In this document: one piece after another, positions 5,340 through 58,693 of the stretch | How the letters are laid out: the number at the start of each line of letters is the position of its first letter | Position numbering within the stretch: position 1 is the stretch's first letter | NCBI GenBank assembly: GCA_001782045.1 | Contig: MFNK01000009.1 | Location: 7,516 to 71,515 of the forward strand | Length of the DNA: 64,000 nt | From: Candidatus Levybacteria bacterium RIFCSPHIGHO2_01_FULL_36_15b | Lineage (GTDB): Bacteria; Patescibacteriota; Microgenomatia; Levybacterales; UBA12049 | Reading direction: 5' to 3' | Translations under genes and position numbers: made by a program | Notes under the pieces: generated by a model | Told to the model about the DNA's origin: nothing | Database searches by the model: none | Seen by the model: only the letters and a program-made list of their open reading frames with translations

Positions 5340-6071
5340 ATGCATGATTTAACAGCAAGGCAGGTTGAGATCTTAAAAAGCTTAATAGAGGAATACATAG
5401 AAACAGCAGAGCCAGTTGGTTCTGAGACTTTGGAGAAAAAGCATAATTTAAGCGCATCTCCGGCAACAATAAGAAATGAAATGGTGCGCTTGACAGAGTT
5501 GGGATATTTAAAAAAACCGCATATTTCGGCAGGAAGAATTCCAACTCCGGAAGGAATGAAGTTCTATGTAAAGCAGCTGATGAAGGAAAAAGAACTTTCA
5601 GTTGCAGAAGAAGTTTCATTAAAAGAAAAAGTATGGGATTTAAGAGAAAAGGAAAAAGATTTTTTAAGAGAGCTTACTAAAGCTTTAGCGGAAAGAACTA
5701 ATGCATTGGCTGTTACAACGACAAACGACGGAGATTTATTTTGTGCAGGATATGCAAATTTATTAGATTCACCGGAGTTTTTCGATATTGATGTAACTAA
5801 AAATTTACTTTCTGCAATTGATGAAATAAATTATTTTCAAGGTTTGTTTGAAGGACAAGAGGACGATGACGATACACATATATTACTTGGAGAAGAACTT
5901 GGTCCTAAATTAAACGGACCGTACGGTTTTGTTTACAGAAAGTATACAACTCCGGCAAGATTAAAAGGAGAAGTTGGAGTATTAGGTCCGGCGAGGCTAA
6001 ATTACAATCTTGTTGTCCCAACGGTTAGATATTTCGGAAATTTAATAGAGGAAATAGCAAAAGGCTGGTAA
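5340..6071 (+). CDS. hrcA: heat-inducible transcription repressor HrcA (short, ~243 aa)
   Basis: N-terminal wHTH (LTARQVEILKSLIEEYIETAEPVGSETL...SPATIRNEMVRLTELGYL) aligns with HrcA N-termini. The ORF track starts at a TTG (5328); ATG 5340 (MHDLTARQ) fits HrcA N-termini better. Confidence 0.8.
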   Translation: MHDLTARQVEILKSLIEEYIETAEPVGSETLEKKHNLSASPATIRNEMVRLTELGYLKKPHISAGRIPTPEGMKFYVKQLMKEKELSVAEEVSLKEKVWDLREKEKDFLRELTKALAERTNALAVTTTNDGDLFCAGYANLLDSPEFFDIDVTKNLLSAIDEINYFQGLFEGQEDDDDTHILLGEELGPKLNGPYGFVYRKYTTPARLKGEVGVLGPARLNYNLVVPTVRYFGNLIEEIAKGW

Positions 6072-29711: not shown

Positions 29712-30353
29712 ATGATTAAAGCCAGTGAAAAATTATTAGAGAAAAGACTTGAATTAGGACTTTCTTTAGAGAAAATCGAAAAATCTACAAAAATTAAAGC
29801 AGATTACCTTAGTTTAATCGAAAATGGAAAATTTTCCAGTCTTCCTTCTATTTCCCACGCTTCTGGATTTGTTAAAAATTATGCAAAATTTTTGGGAATT
29901 TCAGAAAAAGAAATTATGCCGCTCTTTAGACGTGAGTTTGATGCAGAATCCGAGTATAGAGTCTTACCTAAGAGCTTTGAAGAGAGGGAGGGGTTTCCAA
30001 TTAGAAATTTTAAGCTAGGAAATGGTTTATTTATCGTAGGGATTGTACTTGTTATTTTTATAGCTTATATTCTTTTTCAATATAGGTACGCTTTTATAAA
30101 TCCACCGCTTACAGTTTATAACCCGCAGGACAGAAGTGTAATAGTTGCACAACAACTCGAAGTCAAGGGTAAAACAGAACCGGAGACCAACATTTTTATA
30201 AATAAAAATCCTGCAACAGTTGATAGCAGAGGTAATTTTTCCAAAACAATTAGTGTTTTTCCCGGAAATTTTGTGCTTAATATAGATGCTGTAAATAAAT
30301 TTGGAAAAAAGACAAGTAAGAAAATAATTATTGAAATTAAATCGGGCACTTGA
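29712..30353 (+). CDS. rodZ: RodZ-like cytoskeleton protein (N-terminal XRE-type HTH, single TM, C-terminal DUF4115-like domain)
   Basis: HTH (LGLSLEKIEKSTKIKADYLSLIENGKF), TM (LFIVGIVLVIFIAYILF), C-terminal beta-rich domain. Confidence 0.55.
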   Translation: MIKASEKLLEKRLELGLSLEKIEKSTKIKADYLSLIENGKFSSLPSISHASGFVKNYAKFLGISEKEIMPLFRREFDAESEYRVLPKSFEEREGFPIRNFKLGNGLFIVGIVLVIFIAYILFQYRYAFINPPLTVYNPQDRSVIVAQQLEVKGKTEPETNIFINKNPATVDSRGNFSKTISVFPGNFVLNIDAVNKFGKKTSKKIIIEIKSGT

Positions 30354-30387
30354 CCTTTTTAACCTTTTGGGTTAAGTTAATTGTATG

Positions 30388-30508
30388 GATCCCGTTAAAA
30401 GCCGCGATCGCATATGGTTCATAGCAATGAAAATTGAACTTTCGATATCATACGAATATAAGATCAAAGGAGGAATTAAGCAGATCGCAATCTGCTTTTA
30501 AACGGGAT
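30388..30508 (+). promoter_or_regulatory. long-range inverted repeat (ATCCCGTTAAAAGC ... GCTTTTAAACGGGAT, 14 bp with one bulge) enclosing a 92-nt loop that contains an AAGGAGG box and an internal hairpin. Right arm ends on the AT of the ATG at 30507
   Basis: Arms 30388-30401 and 30494-30508. Same arm core and geometry recur at 58316-58395. Confidence 0.4.
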
Positions 30509-30773
30509 GGATACTGCTCAAGTTGTATTATTTTTAGTTATCATAATCCTCACGGTTCTTCTTGTGGTTTTGGGGATACAAGTATTTTTTATCTTAAGGG
30601 AGCTTCGTAAAACAGTAGATAGAGCAAATAAAATTCTTGAAGATGCAAGCGAGATAACAGAAAATGTTAGAAAACCGGTAAGTTCCTTATCGTCTTTGGC
30701 AATGGGTCTTAAAACCGGTGCCACAATTGCAAAAATATTTCAAGGAGATAAGAGGGGTAAAAAAGATGAATAA
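30507..30773 (+). CDS. small membrane protein, DUF948/YtxG-like
   Basis: 88 aa; N-terminal TM followed by a coiled-coil. Confidence 0.45.
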   Translation: MDTAQVVLFLVIIILTVLLVVLGIQVFFILRELRKTVDRANKILEDASEITENVRKPVSSLSSLAMGLKTGATIAKIFQGDKRGKKDE

Positions 30774-50276: not shown

Positions 50277-52376
50277 ATGGCTGAAGATAGATTAAAAACA
50301 TTAGATAAGGTAAGAAATATTGGCATTATTGCCCATATTGACGCGGGAAAAACAACAACCACAGAAAGAATTCTTTTTTACACCGGAAAAACCTACAAAA
50401 TTGGAGATATCGACGAGGGAAATACCCAAATGGACTGGATGGAACAGGAAAAAGAAAGAGGAATTACCATAGTTTCCGCTGCAACAACAGCTTTTTGGAA
50501 AGATTACAGAATAAATATTATTGATACTCCCGGACACGTTGATTTTACTGCAGAAGTAGAGAGATCTTTAAGGGTTTTGGATGGCGGAATTACAGTTTTG
50601 GATGCAGAAGAAGGAGTTCAATCCCAATCAGAAACCGTTTGGAGACAGGCTGATAAGTATAAAGTGCCAAGGCTATGTTTTGTGAATAAAATGGATAAAT
50701 TAGGAGCCGATTTTTTAGCAACTATAAAATCGATTGAAGACAGACTTGGTGCTAACCCGCTTATTATGGTTTTGCCAATTGGGGTTGAAAGTAGTTTTAC
50801 AGGAATAGTCCATTTGATGGAACAAAAAGCATACATTTGGAAAAATGACAACCTCGGCGCGGAATTTGAAGTTACAGATGTGCCGGAAGATATGAAGGCT
50901 CAGGTGCAAGAATATAGGCACAAATTAGTTGAAAAAATTGCAGAAACCGATGATGCTCTAACTGATAAATATTTGCACGGACAGGAAATTTCAGACGATG
51001 AATTAAAAGCGGCTTTGCGGCGTGCAGTTATTGCTTATAAATTAGTTCCGATATTTGCAGGAAGTTCGCTGCGTAACAAAGGCGTCCAGCCATTACTTGA
51101 TGCAGTTGTAGATTATCTGCCTTCTCCTTTGGATGTTGGAGAAATTATCGGAATTAATCCCAAAACTGGTGAGGAAGTAAAAAGAACTCCTCAAGCAGAC
51201 CAGCCTTTAGCAGGTCTTGCCTTTAAAATTCAAATTGACCCACACGTCGGAAAACTTACTTATTTTAGAGTTTATAGCGGCAAAGTAGCTGCCGGTTCCT
51301 ATATTTATAACAGTTCCAAAAATGAAAATGAAAGAATTGGAAGAATTTTATTAATGCATGCAAATCACAGAGAAGAAATTAAAGAAGCATATGCAGGAGA
51401 AATTGTTGCATTAGTTGGGCTTAAGGATACTATTACCGGAGACACTTTATCAGATGAAAAAGAACCAATAGTTCTGGAAAAAATTTCCTTCCCCGAGCCT
51501 GTTATATCACTTGCAATTGAGCCAAAAACAAAAGCAGATCAGGAAAAATTAGGCCTTGCTCTAAAAAGATTGTCAGAGGAAGATCCGACTTTTTCAATTA
51601 AAACAAATCATGAAACAGGGCAGACTATAATTTCCGGAATGGGAGAGCTGCAGCTTGAAGTTATGGTAGACAGAATGAAGCGGGAATTCGGAGTTTTGGC
51701 AAATGTCGGAGCGCCCCAAGTAGCATATAAAGAAACAATAAAGCAAACTGCAGAGGGAGAAGGAAAGTATATAAGGCAATCCGGAGGAAGAGGACAATAC
51801 GGCCATTGTTTCTTACGGGTTGAACCAAAACCAAGAGGCGAAGGGTACGAGTTTATAAATGCAATAAAAGGAGGAGCAATTCCTTCTGAATTTATAATTT
51901 CAATCCAAAAAGGTGTAAAAGAAACTATGGAAAACGGAATTTTGTTAGGATATCCGCTTGTTGATATGAATGTAACTGTTTATGATGGAAGTTTCCACGA
52001 GGTAGATTCATCCGACGTCGCATTTAAAATTGCAGCTTCACAAGCACTTCAAGCTGCTACACGAAAAGCACAGCTTTCGCTTTTAGAGCCTATTATGAAG
52101 GTTGAAGTAACAACGCCGAGCGAGTTTATGGGAGATGTAATTGGAGATTTGTCATCTAAAAGAGGTCAAATATTAGGAACAGAAGAAAAGGGAAAAGCGA
52201 CAATTATTAACGCTATGGTACCGCTCGCCGAGCTTTCAAAATATGAAACGACTCTTCGATCTATGTCTCAGGGAAGAGCCCACTCATATCTTGAGCCAAG
52301 CCATTACGAAGAAGTACCCAAAAATATAGTTGAAGCAATGCTTGCCAAATCCACATTCACCGGAAGAGTTGAATAG
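50277..52376 (+). CDS. fusA: elongation factor G
   Basis: G domain [20 protein letters not shown]; domains II-V. 699 aa. Confidence 0.95.
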
Positions 52377-53160
52377 GTAAAGAGGGATAATTTCCGCGTC
52401 TCCAAAAACTGCTCGTAAAGTATTTTTTAAGTTTATCCAGGACAGGATTAGAATGAGAAGGTTCTTCTTCAATCGTAAGTTGAGTAAAACTTGATGGTCG
52501 AATCCACGGCCAAATTTGAATTTGACCTTCTCTTTGTGCAATAACTGTTTCCTCTGGTGTCATTCCTTGTGCTTGCCATACTAATCTTTCCAGTTGAGGA
52601 TGCCAACTTTCCCATAAAATTTGATCTTTTGTTTTTTCTTTTAGATCTTGTTCACCACCATTTATTAGCATTTTATTATGTCTCGTAAGATAACTTGAGA
52701 GTTTTAATTCTTTTTCAGCAAGAGGTAGGCTGTTCCATCCATCTAATGCGGCCTTTTTAACCCAAGAACCATTTATTTGTCCATCCTGTTCTTCTTGTTT
52801 AGCTATCTCTTCGCTTAGCATTCTATTTCTAATTTTCTGTTTGCCGTGTTTCAATTGTAGACTGCTCGATTTTACCTCACCTTCAGCTTCGCTTAAAGGA
52901 AAGCCTTCAACGAACTTTATTATAAAATCACTACCTTTTGCATATCGTTCTTTCAGAATTACTTCTGCAACAATATCTGTTTGGGATGCTATTATCTTTT
53001 GTGTTCTTATTTCTGTTATATCTCCTCTTTCGTTCCAGAGATCATGAAGAAAAGCTCCATTATCTTTTTGCTGTTCTTTAATTTTTCTTCTCGTGAGACG
53101 CACAGGGATCTCAAAATGAGGCGCGGATATTTGATCTAATTCGGATGGTGCAATTCCCAT
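52357..53160 (-). CDS. hypothetical protein (Q/E/W/R-rich), antisense-oriented insertion between fusA and tuf
   Basis: 267 aa, no recognised domain. 3' end overlaps the fusA stop by 20 nt (convergent). Confidence 0.45.
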
Positions 53161-53206: not shown

Positions 53207-53785
53207 TTGTTTTGGTATACTAAATATGTGGTAAAAATAAAATCCTTCAGGTATAAAAATCTTCTTGGGGCTTTTTTGGGAATTCTTATCGCGCTTCTTC
53301 TGTCTCGCTTTGAGCCTTTTCACTTATTTCTTCTAAACTTACATGAATTAGGTTACTTAGGTGCCTTTATTGCCGGAGCGCTTTTTGTTTCTACTTTCAC
53401 GGTTGCAACAGGGGCTGTAATACTTCTTGTTTTAGCTGAAAGTCTTTCGCCCGTAGAGTTGGCCCTAATAGGTGGTTTAGGCTCGGTTCTTGGAGATTTT
53501 TTTATTTTCAAGTTTATCAAAAACTCGCTCTCGATTGAAATTACTGAAATTTATAATCACTTTGGGGGTAACCATCTTTCAAAAATCCTACACACAAAAT
53601 ATTTTAGTTGGACTTTGCCGGTAATTGGCGCGATTATTATCGCTTCTCCATTTCCCGATGAATTAGGAGTAAGTTTACTAGGGATATCCAGAATGAAGAC
53701 GTATCAATTCTTAATTCTCGCATTTATTTTAGATTTTTTAGGCATATTTCTCATAGTAAGTGCGTCAGCTTTAATAAAACCTTAA
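53207..53785 (+). CDS. hypothetical polytopic membrane protein
   Basis: ~192 aa, 5-6 TM helices. Start ambiguous (TTG 53207 or GTG 53228). Confidence 0.4.
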   Translation: MFWYTKYVVKIKSFRYKNLLGAFLGILIALLLSRFEPFHLFLLNLHELGYLGAFIAGALFVSTFTVATGAVILLVLAESLSPVELALIGGLGSVLGDFFIFKFIKNSLSIEITEIYNHFGGNHLSKILHTKYFSWTLPVIGAIIIASPFPDELGVSLLGISRMKTYQFLILAFILDFLGIFLIVSASALIKP

Positions 53786-55422: not shown

Positions 55423-55830
55423 ATGGATACACCAGCAAATCCAAATCAACCTCCACAAGATCCCTTTAACTTAGCCCGACAGATATCTACTGATCCCGCA
55501 GTTCCAGACGAGCAGAAATTGGAAATGTTAACGGAAATTGGCAGAGGTGTTGGCGTTGATGTAGATAGAATAAATAGATTGCAACGTGTTCCAATTATAC
55601 AACGTGCGGAAATAATAGCAGGACATATTGCTCGACATGGAGAAACTGTTAGGCAGATTACCGATTTTCAAACGGAAGCAAAAAGTCAATTACGCGAAGC
55701 AGATTCACAGCTGGCTAAATCGACGGCGGAAATAGCAGCTAGACTGGATGAGCTAAGAAGATTCCATGAGCCAAGAATAGCAGAAGCAGACATAGCCGTA
55801 CGCCGTCCCAAAAACACCCCTGAAAAATAA
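55423..55830 (+). CDS. hypothetical protein (alpha-helical; Pro-rich N-terminus PANPNQPPQDP), inserted directly after rpsJ
   Basis: 135 aa. Higher GC and R/Q/D-rich composition unlike neighbours. Preceded by tagTATAAT. Confidence 0.45.
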   Translation: MDTPANPNQPPQDPFNLARQISTDPAVPDEQKLEMLTEIGRGVGVDVDRINRLQRVPIIQRAEIIAGHIARHGETVRQITDFQTEAKSQLREADSQLAKSTAEIAARLDELRRFHEPRIAEADIAVRRPKNTPEK

Positions 55831-56006: not shown

Positions 56007-56432
56007 TTGTTCTCTAGTTTTCTAGATGTATTTAAGCAAGACCCTGATGTTCTAGAAGCCACAGCAGATTCCTTCTTTGATTATGGTGGGTCTCACGATT
56101 TTATAGAAATACCTAAAAGTAATTCTGAATATGAAATATCTACAGCTGATGATCCATATAATGGGGCTGTATATAGATTAGATATTGTTAGAAGAGAGGG
56201 AGAGGTTGAAGAACATCTAATTCTTAAAAGCGCACCCGAGAGGTTTAGAGGAAGCACCATAGTTATGGAAGGAGTGGGGTTTATATATCAATACCGAAAT
56301 GAGGAGACGCAAGGGTATCGTCCATACTCAAATTCACCAATAGCTTTGGATGCTGCTCGAACTCTTTTAGAAAAAACAAAAAGAGATTTTCAAGATGCAC
56401 CCCAACCAAATCCGGCCAATCCTCAGACTTAA
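56007..56432 (+). CDS. hypothetical protein (TTG start; C-terminus ends in the Pro-rich APQPNPANPQT)
   Basis: 141 aa, no recognised domain. Atypical composition (R/E/Y/G). Weak SD. Confidence 0.4.
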   Translation: MFSSFLDVFKQDPDVLEATADSFFDYGGSHDFIEIPKSNSEYEISTADDPYNGAVYRLDIVRREGEVEEHLILKSAPERFRGSTIVMEGVGFIYQYRNEETQGYRPYSNSPIALDAARTLLEKTKRDFQDAPQPNPANPQT

Positions 56433-57579: not shown

Positions 57580-58315
57580 AGCTCAAGTTAAAAGCTCAAA
57601 GTCAAAAGTTATAAAGAAAGAAACATCAAAAGCTCCAAAAAAAGCGGTAAAAGAATTATCTAAGCAAACAGGATTAAAACTAAGTGTTTATTCTGCAACC
57701 GGAAGAGTTTTGGAAAGCATGAGTCTTCCTAAAGAAATTTTCGGAGTGGAAGAAAACAAAAGCTTACTTGCCCAGGCTGTAAGAGTTTATCTTGCAAATC
57801 AAAGAAGCGGAACTGCAAAGTCAAAAAGCAGGGGAGAAGTAAATATTTCTACAAGAAAAATTTACAGACAGAAAGGAACAGGCCGGGCAAGACATGGCGC
57901 TGCTTCAGCTCCTATTTTTGTTGGAGGAGGAGTTGCTTTTGGACCAAGGCCCCACGATTTTTCATTAAAACTTTCTAAAAATCTCAGAAGGAAAGCATTA
58001 TTTATGGCGCTTTCTTCAAAGCTTGCAGAAGGGGAAATAAAAATAGTTTCAGGATTTGAAAAACTGGAGCCTAAAACAAAAAACATGGCTCAAGCTTTTG
58101 CAAAAATAGAAAAAGAAGGAAAGAAAAGGAATTTATTATTGGTAACTCCGGATTCAACCGAAAAATACGTAAACGTAGTTAAAGCAGCAAGAAATATAAA
58201 AGGCGTAGAAATTATGCCCTCGAGTCTTTTAAATACATATCAGGTTCTTAAAGCAAAAGAATTATTATTCATGAAAGAAGCAATAAACACACTAAAGGAG
58301 AGCGCAGCAAAATGA
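57566..58315 (+). CDS. rplD: 50S ribosomal protein L4 (N-terminal basic extension)
   Basis: 249 aa; L4 core (GTGRARHG...). Confidence 0.9.
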   Translation: MPRAKAQVKSSKSKVIKKETSKAPKKAVKELSKQTGLKLSVYSATGRVLESMSLPKEIFGVEENKSLLAQAVRVYLANQRSGTAKSKSRGEVNISTRKIYRQKGTGRARHGAASAPIFVGGGVAFGPRPHDFSLKLSKNLRRKALFMALSSKLAEGEIKIVSGFEKLEPKTKNMAQAFAKIEKEGKKRNLLLVTPDSTEKYVNVVKAARNIKGVEIMPSSLLNTYQVLKAKELLFMKEAINTLKESAAK

Positions 58316-58395
58316 ATCCCGTTAGAAAAATGAGTTCAAAAAAGATATTTCCAGAAATAAGGCTTAATATTTTAAGGAGGGTTTTCTAACGGGAT
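58316..58395 (+). promoter_or_regulatory. second copy of the ATCCCGTTA...TAACGGGAT inverted-repeat element (14-bp perfect arms, 52-nt loop containing AAGGAGGG). Right arm ends on the AT of the rplW ATG
   Basis: Arms 58316-58329 (ATCCCGTTAGAAAA) and 58382-58395 (TTTTCTAACGGGAT). rplW ATG at 58394. Confidence 0.45.
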
Positions 58396-58693
58396 GAATG
58401 CATTAAATATTATTTTACAGCCCGTAATTTCTGAAAAATCATTAAATGATGTAGGTAAATCAAGATTTACATTTAAAGTGGCAAGGAATACAAACAAAAC
58501 TGAAATTAAAAAAGCAGTAGAGGAAAAATTTAAGGTAAATGTTTTAAAAGTTTCAACGATAAGCTTAGCGGGAAAAGAAAAACAAATACGAACAAGAACA
58601 AAAGTTGCAAAAGTAGCAAACAAGCCCTTTAAAAAGGCAGTCGTAACATTAAAAGAGGGACAAAAGATTGCAATTTTTGAGTCAGGAAAATAA
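58394..58693 (+). CDS. rplW: 50S ribosomal protein L23
   Basis: 99 aa, L23 fold pattern. Confidence 0.9.
   Translation: MNALNIILQPVISEKSLNDVGKSRFTFKVARNTNKTEIKKAVEEKFKVNVLKVSTISLAGKEKQIRTRTKVAKVANKPFKKAVVTLKEGQKIAIFESGK

Follow-up and report, generated by a model that had tools for sequence, protein, structure and literature searches.

Bacterial MITEs (miniature inverted-repeat transposable elements), among them Correia/NEMIS of Neisseria, ERIC, RUP and Nezha, are described in reviews (PMC10969869, PMC3184786). The subject here is a family of foldback elements found in a 64,000-nt stretch of DNA (the whole stretch analysed, called the window below) on a 275-kb Rifle aquifer scaffold of Candidatus Levybacteria, in the Microgenomates of the candidate phyla radiation (CPR): copy 1 stands at the start of a gene for an 88-aa DUF948-like membrane protein, copy 2 at the start of rplW, and copy 3, further along the same scaffold, at the start of rpsM. 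All three are very probably non-autonomous, MITE-like foldback elements whose insertion rebuilt the start codon, the gene presumably being kept expressed by translational coupling. Like MITEs, they are small, lack a transposase gene, share terminal inverted repeats, are bounded by short target duplications recognizable against the empty site, and occur in multiple dispersed copies that are polymorphic and patchily distributed among relatives, with a transcript predicted to form a stable stem-loop. Unlike known MITEs, no parent insertion sequence (IS) was found, the terminal 10–11 nt are identical across contigs that differ widely in gene content and whose GC content runs from 0.30 to 0.58, the inner helices covary, and roughly one third of the copies (141 unique copies among the matches listed from public contig collections, the scope of all 141-copy figures below) lie exactly on a start codon rebuilt by the insertion. 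The family is large, present in many uncultured bacteria and apparently undescribed; no account of it turned up in full-text literature searches, whether these used the arm sequences or topics such as MITEs at start codons and repeats in CPR bacteria and Patescibacteria. An earlier note on this DNA had offered, as the alternative to a regulatory RNA, a miniature inverted-repeat element that landed before unrelated genes; it is this alternative that the analysis supports, and no fitting family was found among those described before.

Mycobacterial interspersed repetitive units (MIRUs) are 40–100 bp direct tandem repeats (variable-number tandem repeat loci) known only from mycobacteria, and are not known to have terminal inverted repeats or a hairpin. 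Their insertion at start codons and the logic of coupling that follows from it are described in a translational-coupling review that covers them (Supply et al. 1997 in PMC12548453), and, as there, the present elements insert at start codons and leave a pass-through open reading frame (ORF) ending at +4 or −4 from the regenerated ATG. Unlike MIRUs, each of them is a lone foldback unit that has inverted termini and duplicates its target, and they occur in CPR and other uncultured bacteria; they resemble MIRUs in function and are not members of that group. Rickettsia palindromic elements, which insert in frame within genes and become part of the protein (PMC10969869), are likewise palindromic mobile elements tolerated in expressed regions with the frame kept open, but most copies of the present family lie outside the mature protein, and in-frame N-terminal fusions are a minority (4 of 44 copies).

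Copy 1, a long form, interrupts the start of the 88-aa protein gene (coding sequence 30507-30773, + strand) and comprises the following features.

30385..30390, + strand: left direct repeat ATGGAT, containing the start codon that the 88-aa gene had before the insertion and that now opens an ORF of 38 codons
30390..30507, + strand: element copy 1, long form, from T-CCCGTTAAAA to TTTAAACGGG-A, with a core of 116 nt
30389..30402, + strand: 5′ strand of helix 1, terminal inverted repeat ATCCCGTTAAAAGC
30404..30409, + strand: 5′ strand of helix 2, GCGATC, family-conserved
30467..30473, + strand: Shine-Dalgarno (SD)-like AAGGAGG in the loop, 33 nt ahead of the regenerated ATG
30483..30488, + strand: GATCGC, 3′ strand of helix 2; the bulge AATCT comes next (30489-30493; NYCT in relatives)
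30494..30508, + strand: 3′ strand of helix 1, terminal inverted repeat GCTTTTAAACGGGAT, holding an in-frame TAA at 30499-30501
30385..30501, + strand: pass-through leader ORF (38 codons and a stop) that opens at the original ATG and continues across the element, its stop lying 5 nt before the new ATG
30507..30512, + strand: right direct repeat ATGGAT, with the rebuilt ATG of the 88-aa gene

With its duplicated target the element amounts to a 122-bp insertion. The inverted repeat described by the earlier note is indeed present, with 14 bp and one bulged A, and its right arm was placed correctly, but the left arm lies at 30389-30402 and not at 30388-30401. AAGGAGG was likewise correctly recognized and judged too distant from the ATG at 30507 for a canonical SD, its position (30466-30472) having been set one base too low. 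An internal hairpin, CAGAT-cgca-ATCTG, exists at 30481-30494 as proposed; it is a local alternative only, with no family-conserved pairing role. What had been overlooked are the direct repeats, each containing a start codon, that bracket both window copies. A 14-bp inverted repeat is not unusual in itself, since a repeat search listed 98 pairs within the window. The 9-mer ATCCCGTTA, on the other hand, has exact matches in the window only in element arms (30389 +, 58316 + and 58387 −, with a one-mismatch partner at 30500 −), against a chance expectation of about 0.5 matches in 128 kb of two-strand sequence.

Copy 1 is absent from three related loci, L232, L233 and L230, whose orthologs of the 88-aa protein are 95, 94 and 86% identical. 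There the site is uninterrupted and reads ...TTAATTGT-ATGGAT-ACAGC..., with the junction ...taattgtATGGATACAGC or ...taattgtATGGACAGTGC and, over a longer stretch, ...ttaattgtATGGATACAGC... or ...ttaattgtATGGACAGTGC.... Just before the original ATG (window 30350-30384) stands a TTGACC about 17 nt upstream of a TAAGTT, conserved in L230, L232 and L233, and no SD precedes that ATG, so that the ancestral 88-aa gene may have been leaderless. The TTGACC...TAAGTT pair went uncalled when the DNA upstream of copy 1 was scanned for consensus promoters, so leaderless ancestry is at best faintly suggested.

The second copy was reported earlier to stand ahead of rplW (coding sequence 58394-58693, + strand) in the same register relative to the start codon, and this holds exactly, its arms ending on the A-T of the ATG at 58394. 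The features of copies 2 and 3, both short forms, are these.

58312..58317, + strand: left direct repeat ATGAAT, the original rplW start, overlapping the rplD stop (ATGA)
58317..58394, + strand: element copy 2, short form with a 76-nt core, an 82-bp insertion
58316-58329 and 58382-58395: arms of copy 2, a perfect 14 bp
58374-58380, + strand: AAGGAGG of copy 2
58312..58389, + strand: pass-through leader ORF of 25 codons, ending at the right-arm TAA, 4 nt before the rplW ATG
58394..58399, + strand: right direct repeat ATGAAT, the regenerated rplW start codon
L001 20012-20087 (same scaffold, 4.4 kb past the window end): copy 3, short form of 76 nt, exactly at the rpsM start codon

The ATGA overlap of rplD and rplW is the usual arrangement in this operon. 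Copy 2 is missing from L019 (89% identity in ribosomal protein L2), the nearest species that the genome collection contains; there the rplD/rplW junction reads ...AAATGAATGCTCTAAAT...; at other related loci the rplD-to-rplW gaps found by tblastn are mostly short. Copy 3, flanked by ATGAGT and ATGAGA and again traversed by a pass-through ORF of 25 codons, is missing at rpsM in L019 and in 14 other relatives. The duplicated bases in the three empty/filled pairs are ATGGAT, ATGAAT and ATGAG. Each insertion has one layout, in which a short direct repeat of this kind is followed by Y-CCCGTTAGAA ... TTCTAACGGG-R and then by the repeat again. As their empty orthologous sites demonstrate, copies 1, 2 and 3 are insertions. 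All contigs encoding identical proteins carry them, and they are thus fixed in this population.

Further copies in Levybacteria follow the same pattern. Three copies are present in about 68 kb of this genome and four in 11 kb of L038, the latter ahead of rpmC, rplX, rplO and adk; L064 has a single copy, ahead of rplX, and those of L038 and L064 are all exactly on start codons. Among 80 related S10-spc loci, L038, L064 and the window itself are the only carriers. The three long forms of L038 are 94–96% identical to each other and 72% identical to copy 1. At the same rplX start L038 has a long form and L064 a short form, which marks these as independent insertions. Short forms from four different genomes are all exactly 76 nt, keeping frame. 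All eight Levybacteria copies have AAGGAGG, which lies 13 nt (short forms) or 33–34 nt (long forms) from the ATG, but only 16 of 53 start-codon copies overall contain an SD-like box, and the motif is therefore a lineage-specific addition.

The wider family was sought in public viral and metagenome contig collections with a pattern of two fixed 10-nt arms and unspecified flanks, which matched 11 stretches of viral contigs and at least 120 of metagenome contigs. Host contigs of the 141 listed copies range from 30 to 62% GC, and one further host, recognized by an exact-protein match, is a Patescibacteria group bacterium. The terminal inverted repeat (YCCCGTTAGAA / TTCTAACGGGR) is common to the window, L001, L038, L064 and these 141 metagenome and viral copies. 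Enclosed loops run from 1 to about 100 nt and are unrelated in sequence, including GC-rich hairpins and one complete tRNA, and whole elements measure from 27 to about 120 nt. The consensus of the flanks is R-T-N-A-A-Y before CCCG...CGGG and R-T-N-A-A after it, giving a target R|TNAA. Since the Y left of CCCG covaries with the R right of CGGG, both belong to the inverted repeat, and the direct repeat consists of positions 2–5, even for non-consensus TGAG, TGCG, TGAT and GCAA, which are the same on both sides. Such non-consensus repeats, together with the empty sites, indicate a real target duplication of about 4 bp. Elements with T...A ends nearly always have a duplicated target TGNN preceded by A, that is, ATG itself, and those with C...G ends lie mostly at G|TAAA. 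When arm pairs with one substitution per arm were collected, 9 of 12 paired perfectly, the changes being compensatory, and a reversed-sequence control gave a single such pair, uncompensated.

Several individual copies deserve separate mention. L107 3963-3989 and L145 9739-9768 are minimal elements, with arms 7–10 nt apart and the usual flanks. Nested and tandem elements occur at L117 102-187, L118 2045-2127, L122 616-799 and L142 8814-9213, the nested cases having one element within the loop hairpin of another. At L157 628-735 exact arms enclose a complete tRNA gene (648-718, − strand) with short linkers, and no repeat that matches on the two flanks is present; the tRNA may be carried as cargo, or the whole may be a composite of two elements. 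L215 5557-5778 matches the c-di-AMP riboswitch over 222 nt, compared with 134 nt for the model, and has a one-mismatch element arm at 5731, so that an element inserted inside the riboswitch is possible. Finally, L193 549-668 and L146 12290-12409 represent a subfamily with the same termini and another interior, in which a GGAAATCT-AA-AGATTTCC hairpin lies close to the 3′ arm; since these contigs also carry long-form copies, several subfamilies coexist in one genome.

The tandem case in L122, where two elements share a single GTGAAC core (...TTCTAACGGG-GTGAAC-CCCGTTAGAA...), is the junction expected if the elements move instead by conservative site-specific recombination, through a circle carrying TTCTAACGGG-[RTNAAY]-CCCGTTAGAA as a lox- or dif-like site, two inverted binding arms about a short asymmetric core, which would recombine with genomic sites having that core in common, and with the flanking repeat as crossover region. 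This is unlikely, although other observations agree with it. The base preceding the repeat correlates with the terminal base of the element, all 12 aligned long forms share one orientation relative to the asymmetric repeat, and the arm motifs GTTAGAA and TTCTAAC each match 6 of 7 positions of the integron core consensus, which is GTTRRRY / RYYYAAC. Targets, however, are unlike the arms outside the short core, core positions 1 and 6 often differ between junctions, leaving four identical bases, short for a tyrosine-recombinase overlap, and no recombinase recurs near copies at about 120 loci. The order of the core-like boxes, moreover, is opposite to that of a folded attC. An integron attC site as such was rejected on this ground (GTTAGAA ... 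TTCTAAC as opposed to RYYYAAC ... GTTRRRY), and no integrase is present among ten scanned proteins standing for the ORF families that recur across those loci. Dif/Xer sites and retron non-coding RNA were also set aside.

Structural analysis of the elements revealed pairing beyond the termini. Predicted RNA folds of copies 1 and 2 have energies of −32.4 kcal/mol (z −2.8) and −25.1 kcal/mol (z −4.4), respectively, relative to shuffled sequence. In an alignment of the 12 long forms, all situated at ATG codons on contigs of 32–53% GC, two helices are shared, split by a 3′ bulge NYCT, the second being represented in copy 1 by GCGATC (30404-30409) with GATCGC (30483-30488); 94.7% of cells in this alignment pair, compared with 32–44% when the partners are slid, and six pairs have changed on both sides. 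Covariation of the inner helices suggests that pairing itself matters beyond the termini. To judge from the sequences, this conserved pairing may be selected in RNA or in DNA.

It was on such a structure that the earlier note built its preferred proposal of a dedicated cis-regulatory RNA (a thermosensor or a ligand- or protein-responsive switch), in which the closing helix sequesters the start codon and tunes translation. The structural part of the proposal stands: the A-U of the AUG forms the end of the hairpin in each copy that stands on a start codon, the fold exceeds shuffled sequence in stability, and helices 1 and 2 show compensatory changes within the long-form subfamily. The switch itself is not supported and is improbable, because at all three loci the element is missing from the orthologous sites of the closest relatives, because the genes downstream are unrelated (DUF948-like, rplW, rpsM, rpmC, rplX, rplO, adk and dozens more), and because the loops are unconserved, about two thirds of the listed copies lie away from start codons, and target-site duplications are present. 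That the arms are terminal inverted repeats with such duplications was a finding that the earlier note itself had counted against a switch, and the Rfam scan it had suggested gave no match to the element at gathering score in the window and 20 loci, nor any at E≤1 on 30300-30600.

The same hairpins bring to mind repetitive extragenic palindromes (REP/REPIN) or palindrome-associated elements (PATE) derived from IS200/IS605, which are moved as single-stranded DNA by RAYT or Y1 HUH transposases. Stem covariation, the fixed orientation to the flanks and the minimal hairpins with loops of 7–10 nt would all suit such an origin. Its probability is nonetheless very low, since Y1 transposition makes no target duplication and here variable tetranucleotides are duplicated, as the empty sites confirm; neither arm is palindromic in itself, a GTAG-type head is missing, and no RAYT or TnpA gene lies nearby at the roughly 120 loci. 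An IS200/IS605 PATE was accordingly rejected as a candidate: the elements have a single end-to-end stem and not distinct subterminal hairpins, with tetranucleotides duplicated on both sides.

The relation of the elements to start codons illuminates how such insertions may be tolerated. The [A/G]TG at the right junction starts an ORF of at least 60 aa in 49 of 141 listed copies, and gene callers chose the right-junction ATG in seven of ten cases checked; in at least 12 further copies the left TAA is the stop codon of an upstream ORF. As the element ends in R and the duplicated target starts with TG, ATG or GTG is rebuilt before an intact ORF. The frame that the original start codon now opens crosses the left arm as CCC-GTT-AGA. 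Among start-codon copies, 25 of 45 keep this pass-through frame open across the whole loop, compared with 7.1±2.4 for shuffled loops (maximum 17 in 2000 shuffles), whereas copies away from start codons show no comparable excess (72 of 184, 60±6 when shuffled). The frame has three endings, a right-arm TAA 4 nt before the new ATG, an ATGA overlap, or an in-frame fusion, so that the right end copes with all three reading frames; a leader stop at +4 or −4 relative to the new ATG is found in 20 of 44 copies, and in copy 1 the stop is 5 and not 4 nt from the ATG because of the bulged A.

These features suggest the following sequence of events for the MITE-like elements, in which both the coupling and the formation of the hairpin in the mRNA are inferred from sequence. 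Integration would duplicate about 4 bp of target and, on landing in ATGAA, ATGGA or ATGAG, would recreate ATG (or GTG). The original start codon would retain its own ribosome-binding context, to which the ATGA overlap with rplD is added at rplW, where ribosomes may arrive by coupling from rplD. From this codon the short ORF would be read through the hairpin, which the ribosomes would unwind; they would then stop at the UAA in the right arm, 4–5 nt before the new AUG, and reinitiate, while in other copies the leader would stop at an AUGA overlap or fuse in frame. In the Levybacteria copies the internal AAGGAGG may help reinitiation.

A different way of neutralizing the insertion would be its removal from the transcript in the manner of an intron, or hopping of the ribosome from AUG-NA to AUG-NA, as in the bypass of T4 gene 60 and mitochondrial byp. 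Take-off and landing sites are identical (ATGGA or ATGAA) around a stable hairpin, and 37 of 53 start-codon copies have no internal SD-like box, both of which speak for such a mechanism. It is nevertheless extremely improbable: pass-through ORFs that are open and end at the new ATG are in significant excess, which fits ordinary translation with coupling and would otherwise be needless, no ribozyme or intron signature is present, a nascent-peptide signal is impossible at codon 2, and the same repeats surround intergenic copies, where no bypass is needed.

Several observations sit less comfortably with transposition of a MITE-like element followed by coupling. Pass-through is not universal, as the three long forms of L038 have leader ORFs of 9–12 codons with stops 76–86 nt from the new ATG, and in copy 1 the distance of AAGGAGG from the ATG, 33 nt, is beyond the canonical SD range. 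The correlation between the base preceding the target duplication and the terminal base of the element is not predicted by plain duplication through a DDE transposase. The sense strand has 12 G·U to 6 A·C mismatches, and selection acting on the RNA is not demonstrated by these counts; related copies are statistically non-independent. Finally, no transposase or autonomous partner was found near copies at about 120 loci, among the unannotated ORFs of the window or in viral contigs.

This last result rests on several searches. The internal ORFs of copies 1 and 2 are only the 38- and 25-codon leader frames, with no transposase gene, and Pfam detected no transposase among the unannotated ORFs of the window. 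When 549 ORFs from the roughly 120 loci were clustered all-versus-all, the families that emerged were all of the housekeeping kind (ABC transporters, TPR proteins, GT2 glycosyltransferases, histidine kinases, LepA and the like), and among arm pairs sought 150–5000 nt apart none was a candidate autonomous element. In viral contigs, scanning with a single arm gave 116 matches, about the chance estimate, and BLAST of copies 1 and 2 against plasmids and phages returned only chance AT-rich matches. Our guess would be a DDE transposase making a 4-bp staggered cut. Transposases of the piggyBac/IS1380 type duplicate 4 bp of the type T-N-A-A (TTAA for piggyBac) at termini CCC...GGG, and the piggyBac terminal repeat CCCTAGAAAG resembles CCCGTTAGAAAG, a similarity short enough to be due to chance. 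Unlike piggyBac, the present elements have an extra Y/R base between duplication and CCC, and no such transposase was found near any copy.

Whether start codons are sought or merely survived is a related matter. In the window start codons make up only 17 of roughly 147 RTNAA sites that are non-disruptive. All three copies in this genome nevertheless lie on start codons, as do 8 of 8 in Levybacteria, an association that may reflect targeting or survivorship. In T...A elements the invariant part of the duplicated target is ATG, and the last base of the element matches the base before the target. A stronger proposal, which we regard as doubtful though worth stating, is that the family homes to start codons beyond mere survival there, that it spans several phyla and is self-healing, and that it is mobilized by a piggyBac/IS1380-like or a recombinase-type enzyme.

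Apart from the elements, no Rfam family reaches gathering score anywhere in the 64 kb, tRNAs and ribosomal protein leaders included. Ribosomal protein L3 (56611-57579) has 322 aa, with an acidic, Ser/Gln-rich, low-complexity C-terminal tail of about 110 aa. Four ORFs of 135–267 aa with no Pfam match, none of them flanked by element arms, break up the str/S10 ribosomal protein cluster, which is in other respects canonical.

52357-53160, − strand: ORF without Pfam match, between fusA and tuf
53207-53785, + strand: ORF without Pfam match, between fusA and tuf
55423-55830, + strand: ORF without Pfam match, between rpsJ and rplC
56007-56432, + strand: ORF without Pfam match, between rpsJ and rplC

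For the annotation of CPR genomes these insertions have consequences, as essential genes, ribosomal protein genes among them, acquire a long 5′ leader that is false, a small ORF that is spurious and an SD box that seems to be an orphan, and the insertions may be mistaken for riboregulators. They show how a selfish element can colonize extremely compact genomes (93% coding) by way of TNAA/ATG gene boundaries, rebuilding the start codon and probably allowing ribosomes to read on to a stop at the new ATG. Independently, and by means of a hairpin, the family parallels the proposal made for mycobacterial MIRUs. With more than 140 copies and variable loops, the family is also a natural data set for termination-reinitiation across structured RNA. 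Near-identical termini in very different bacteria point to a mobilizing enzyme that spreads horizontally, and if homing to start codons were true, the family would represent a self-healing insertion that exploits translational coupling, served by an enzyme that reads gene boundaries.

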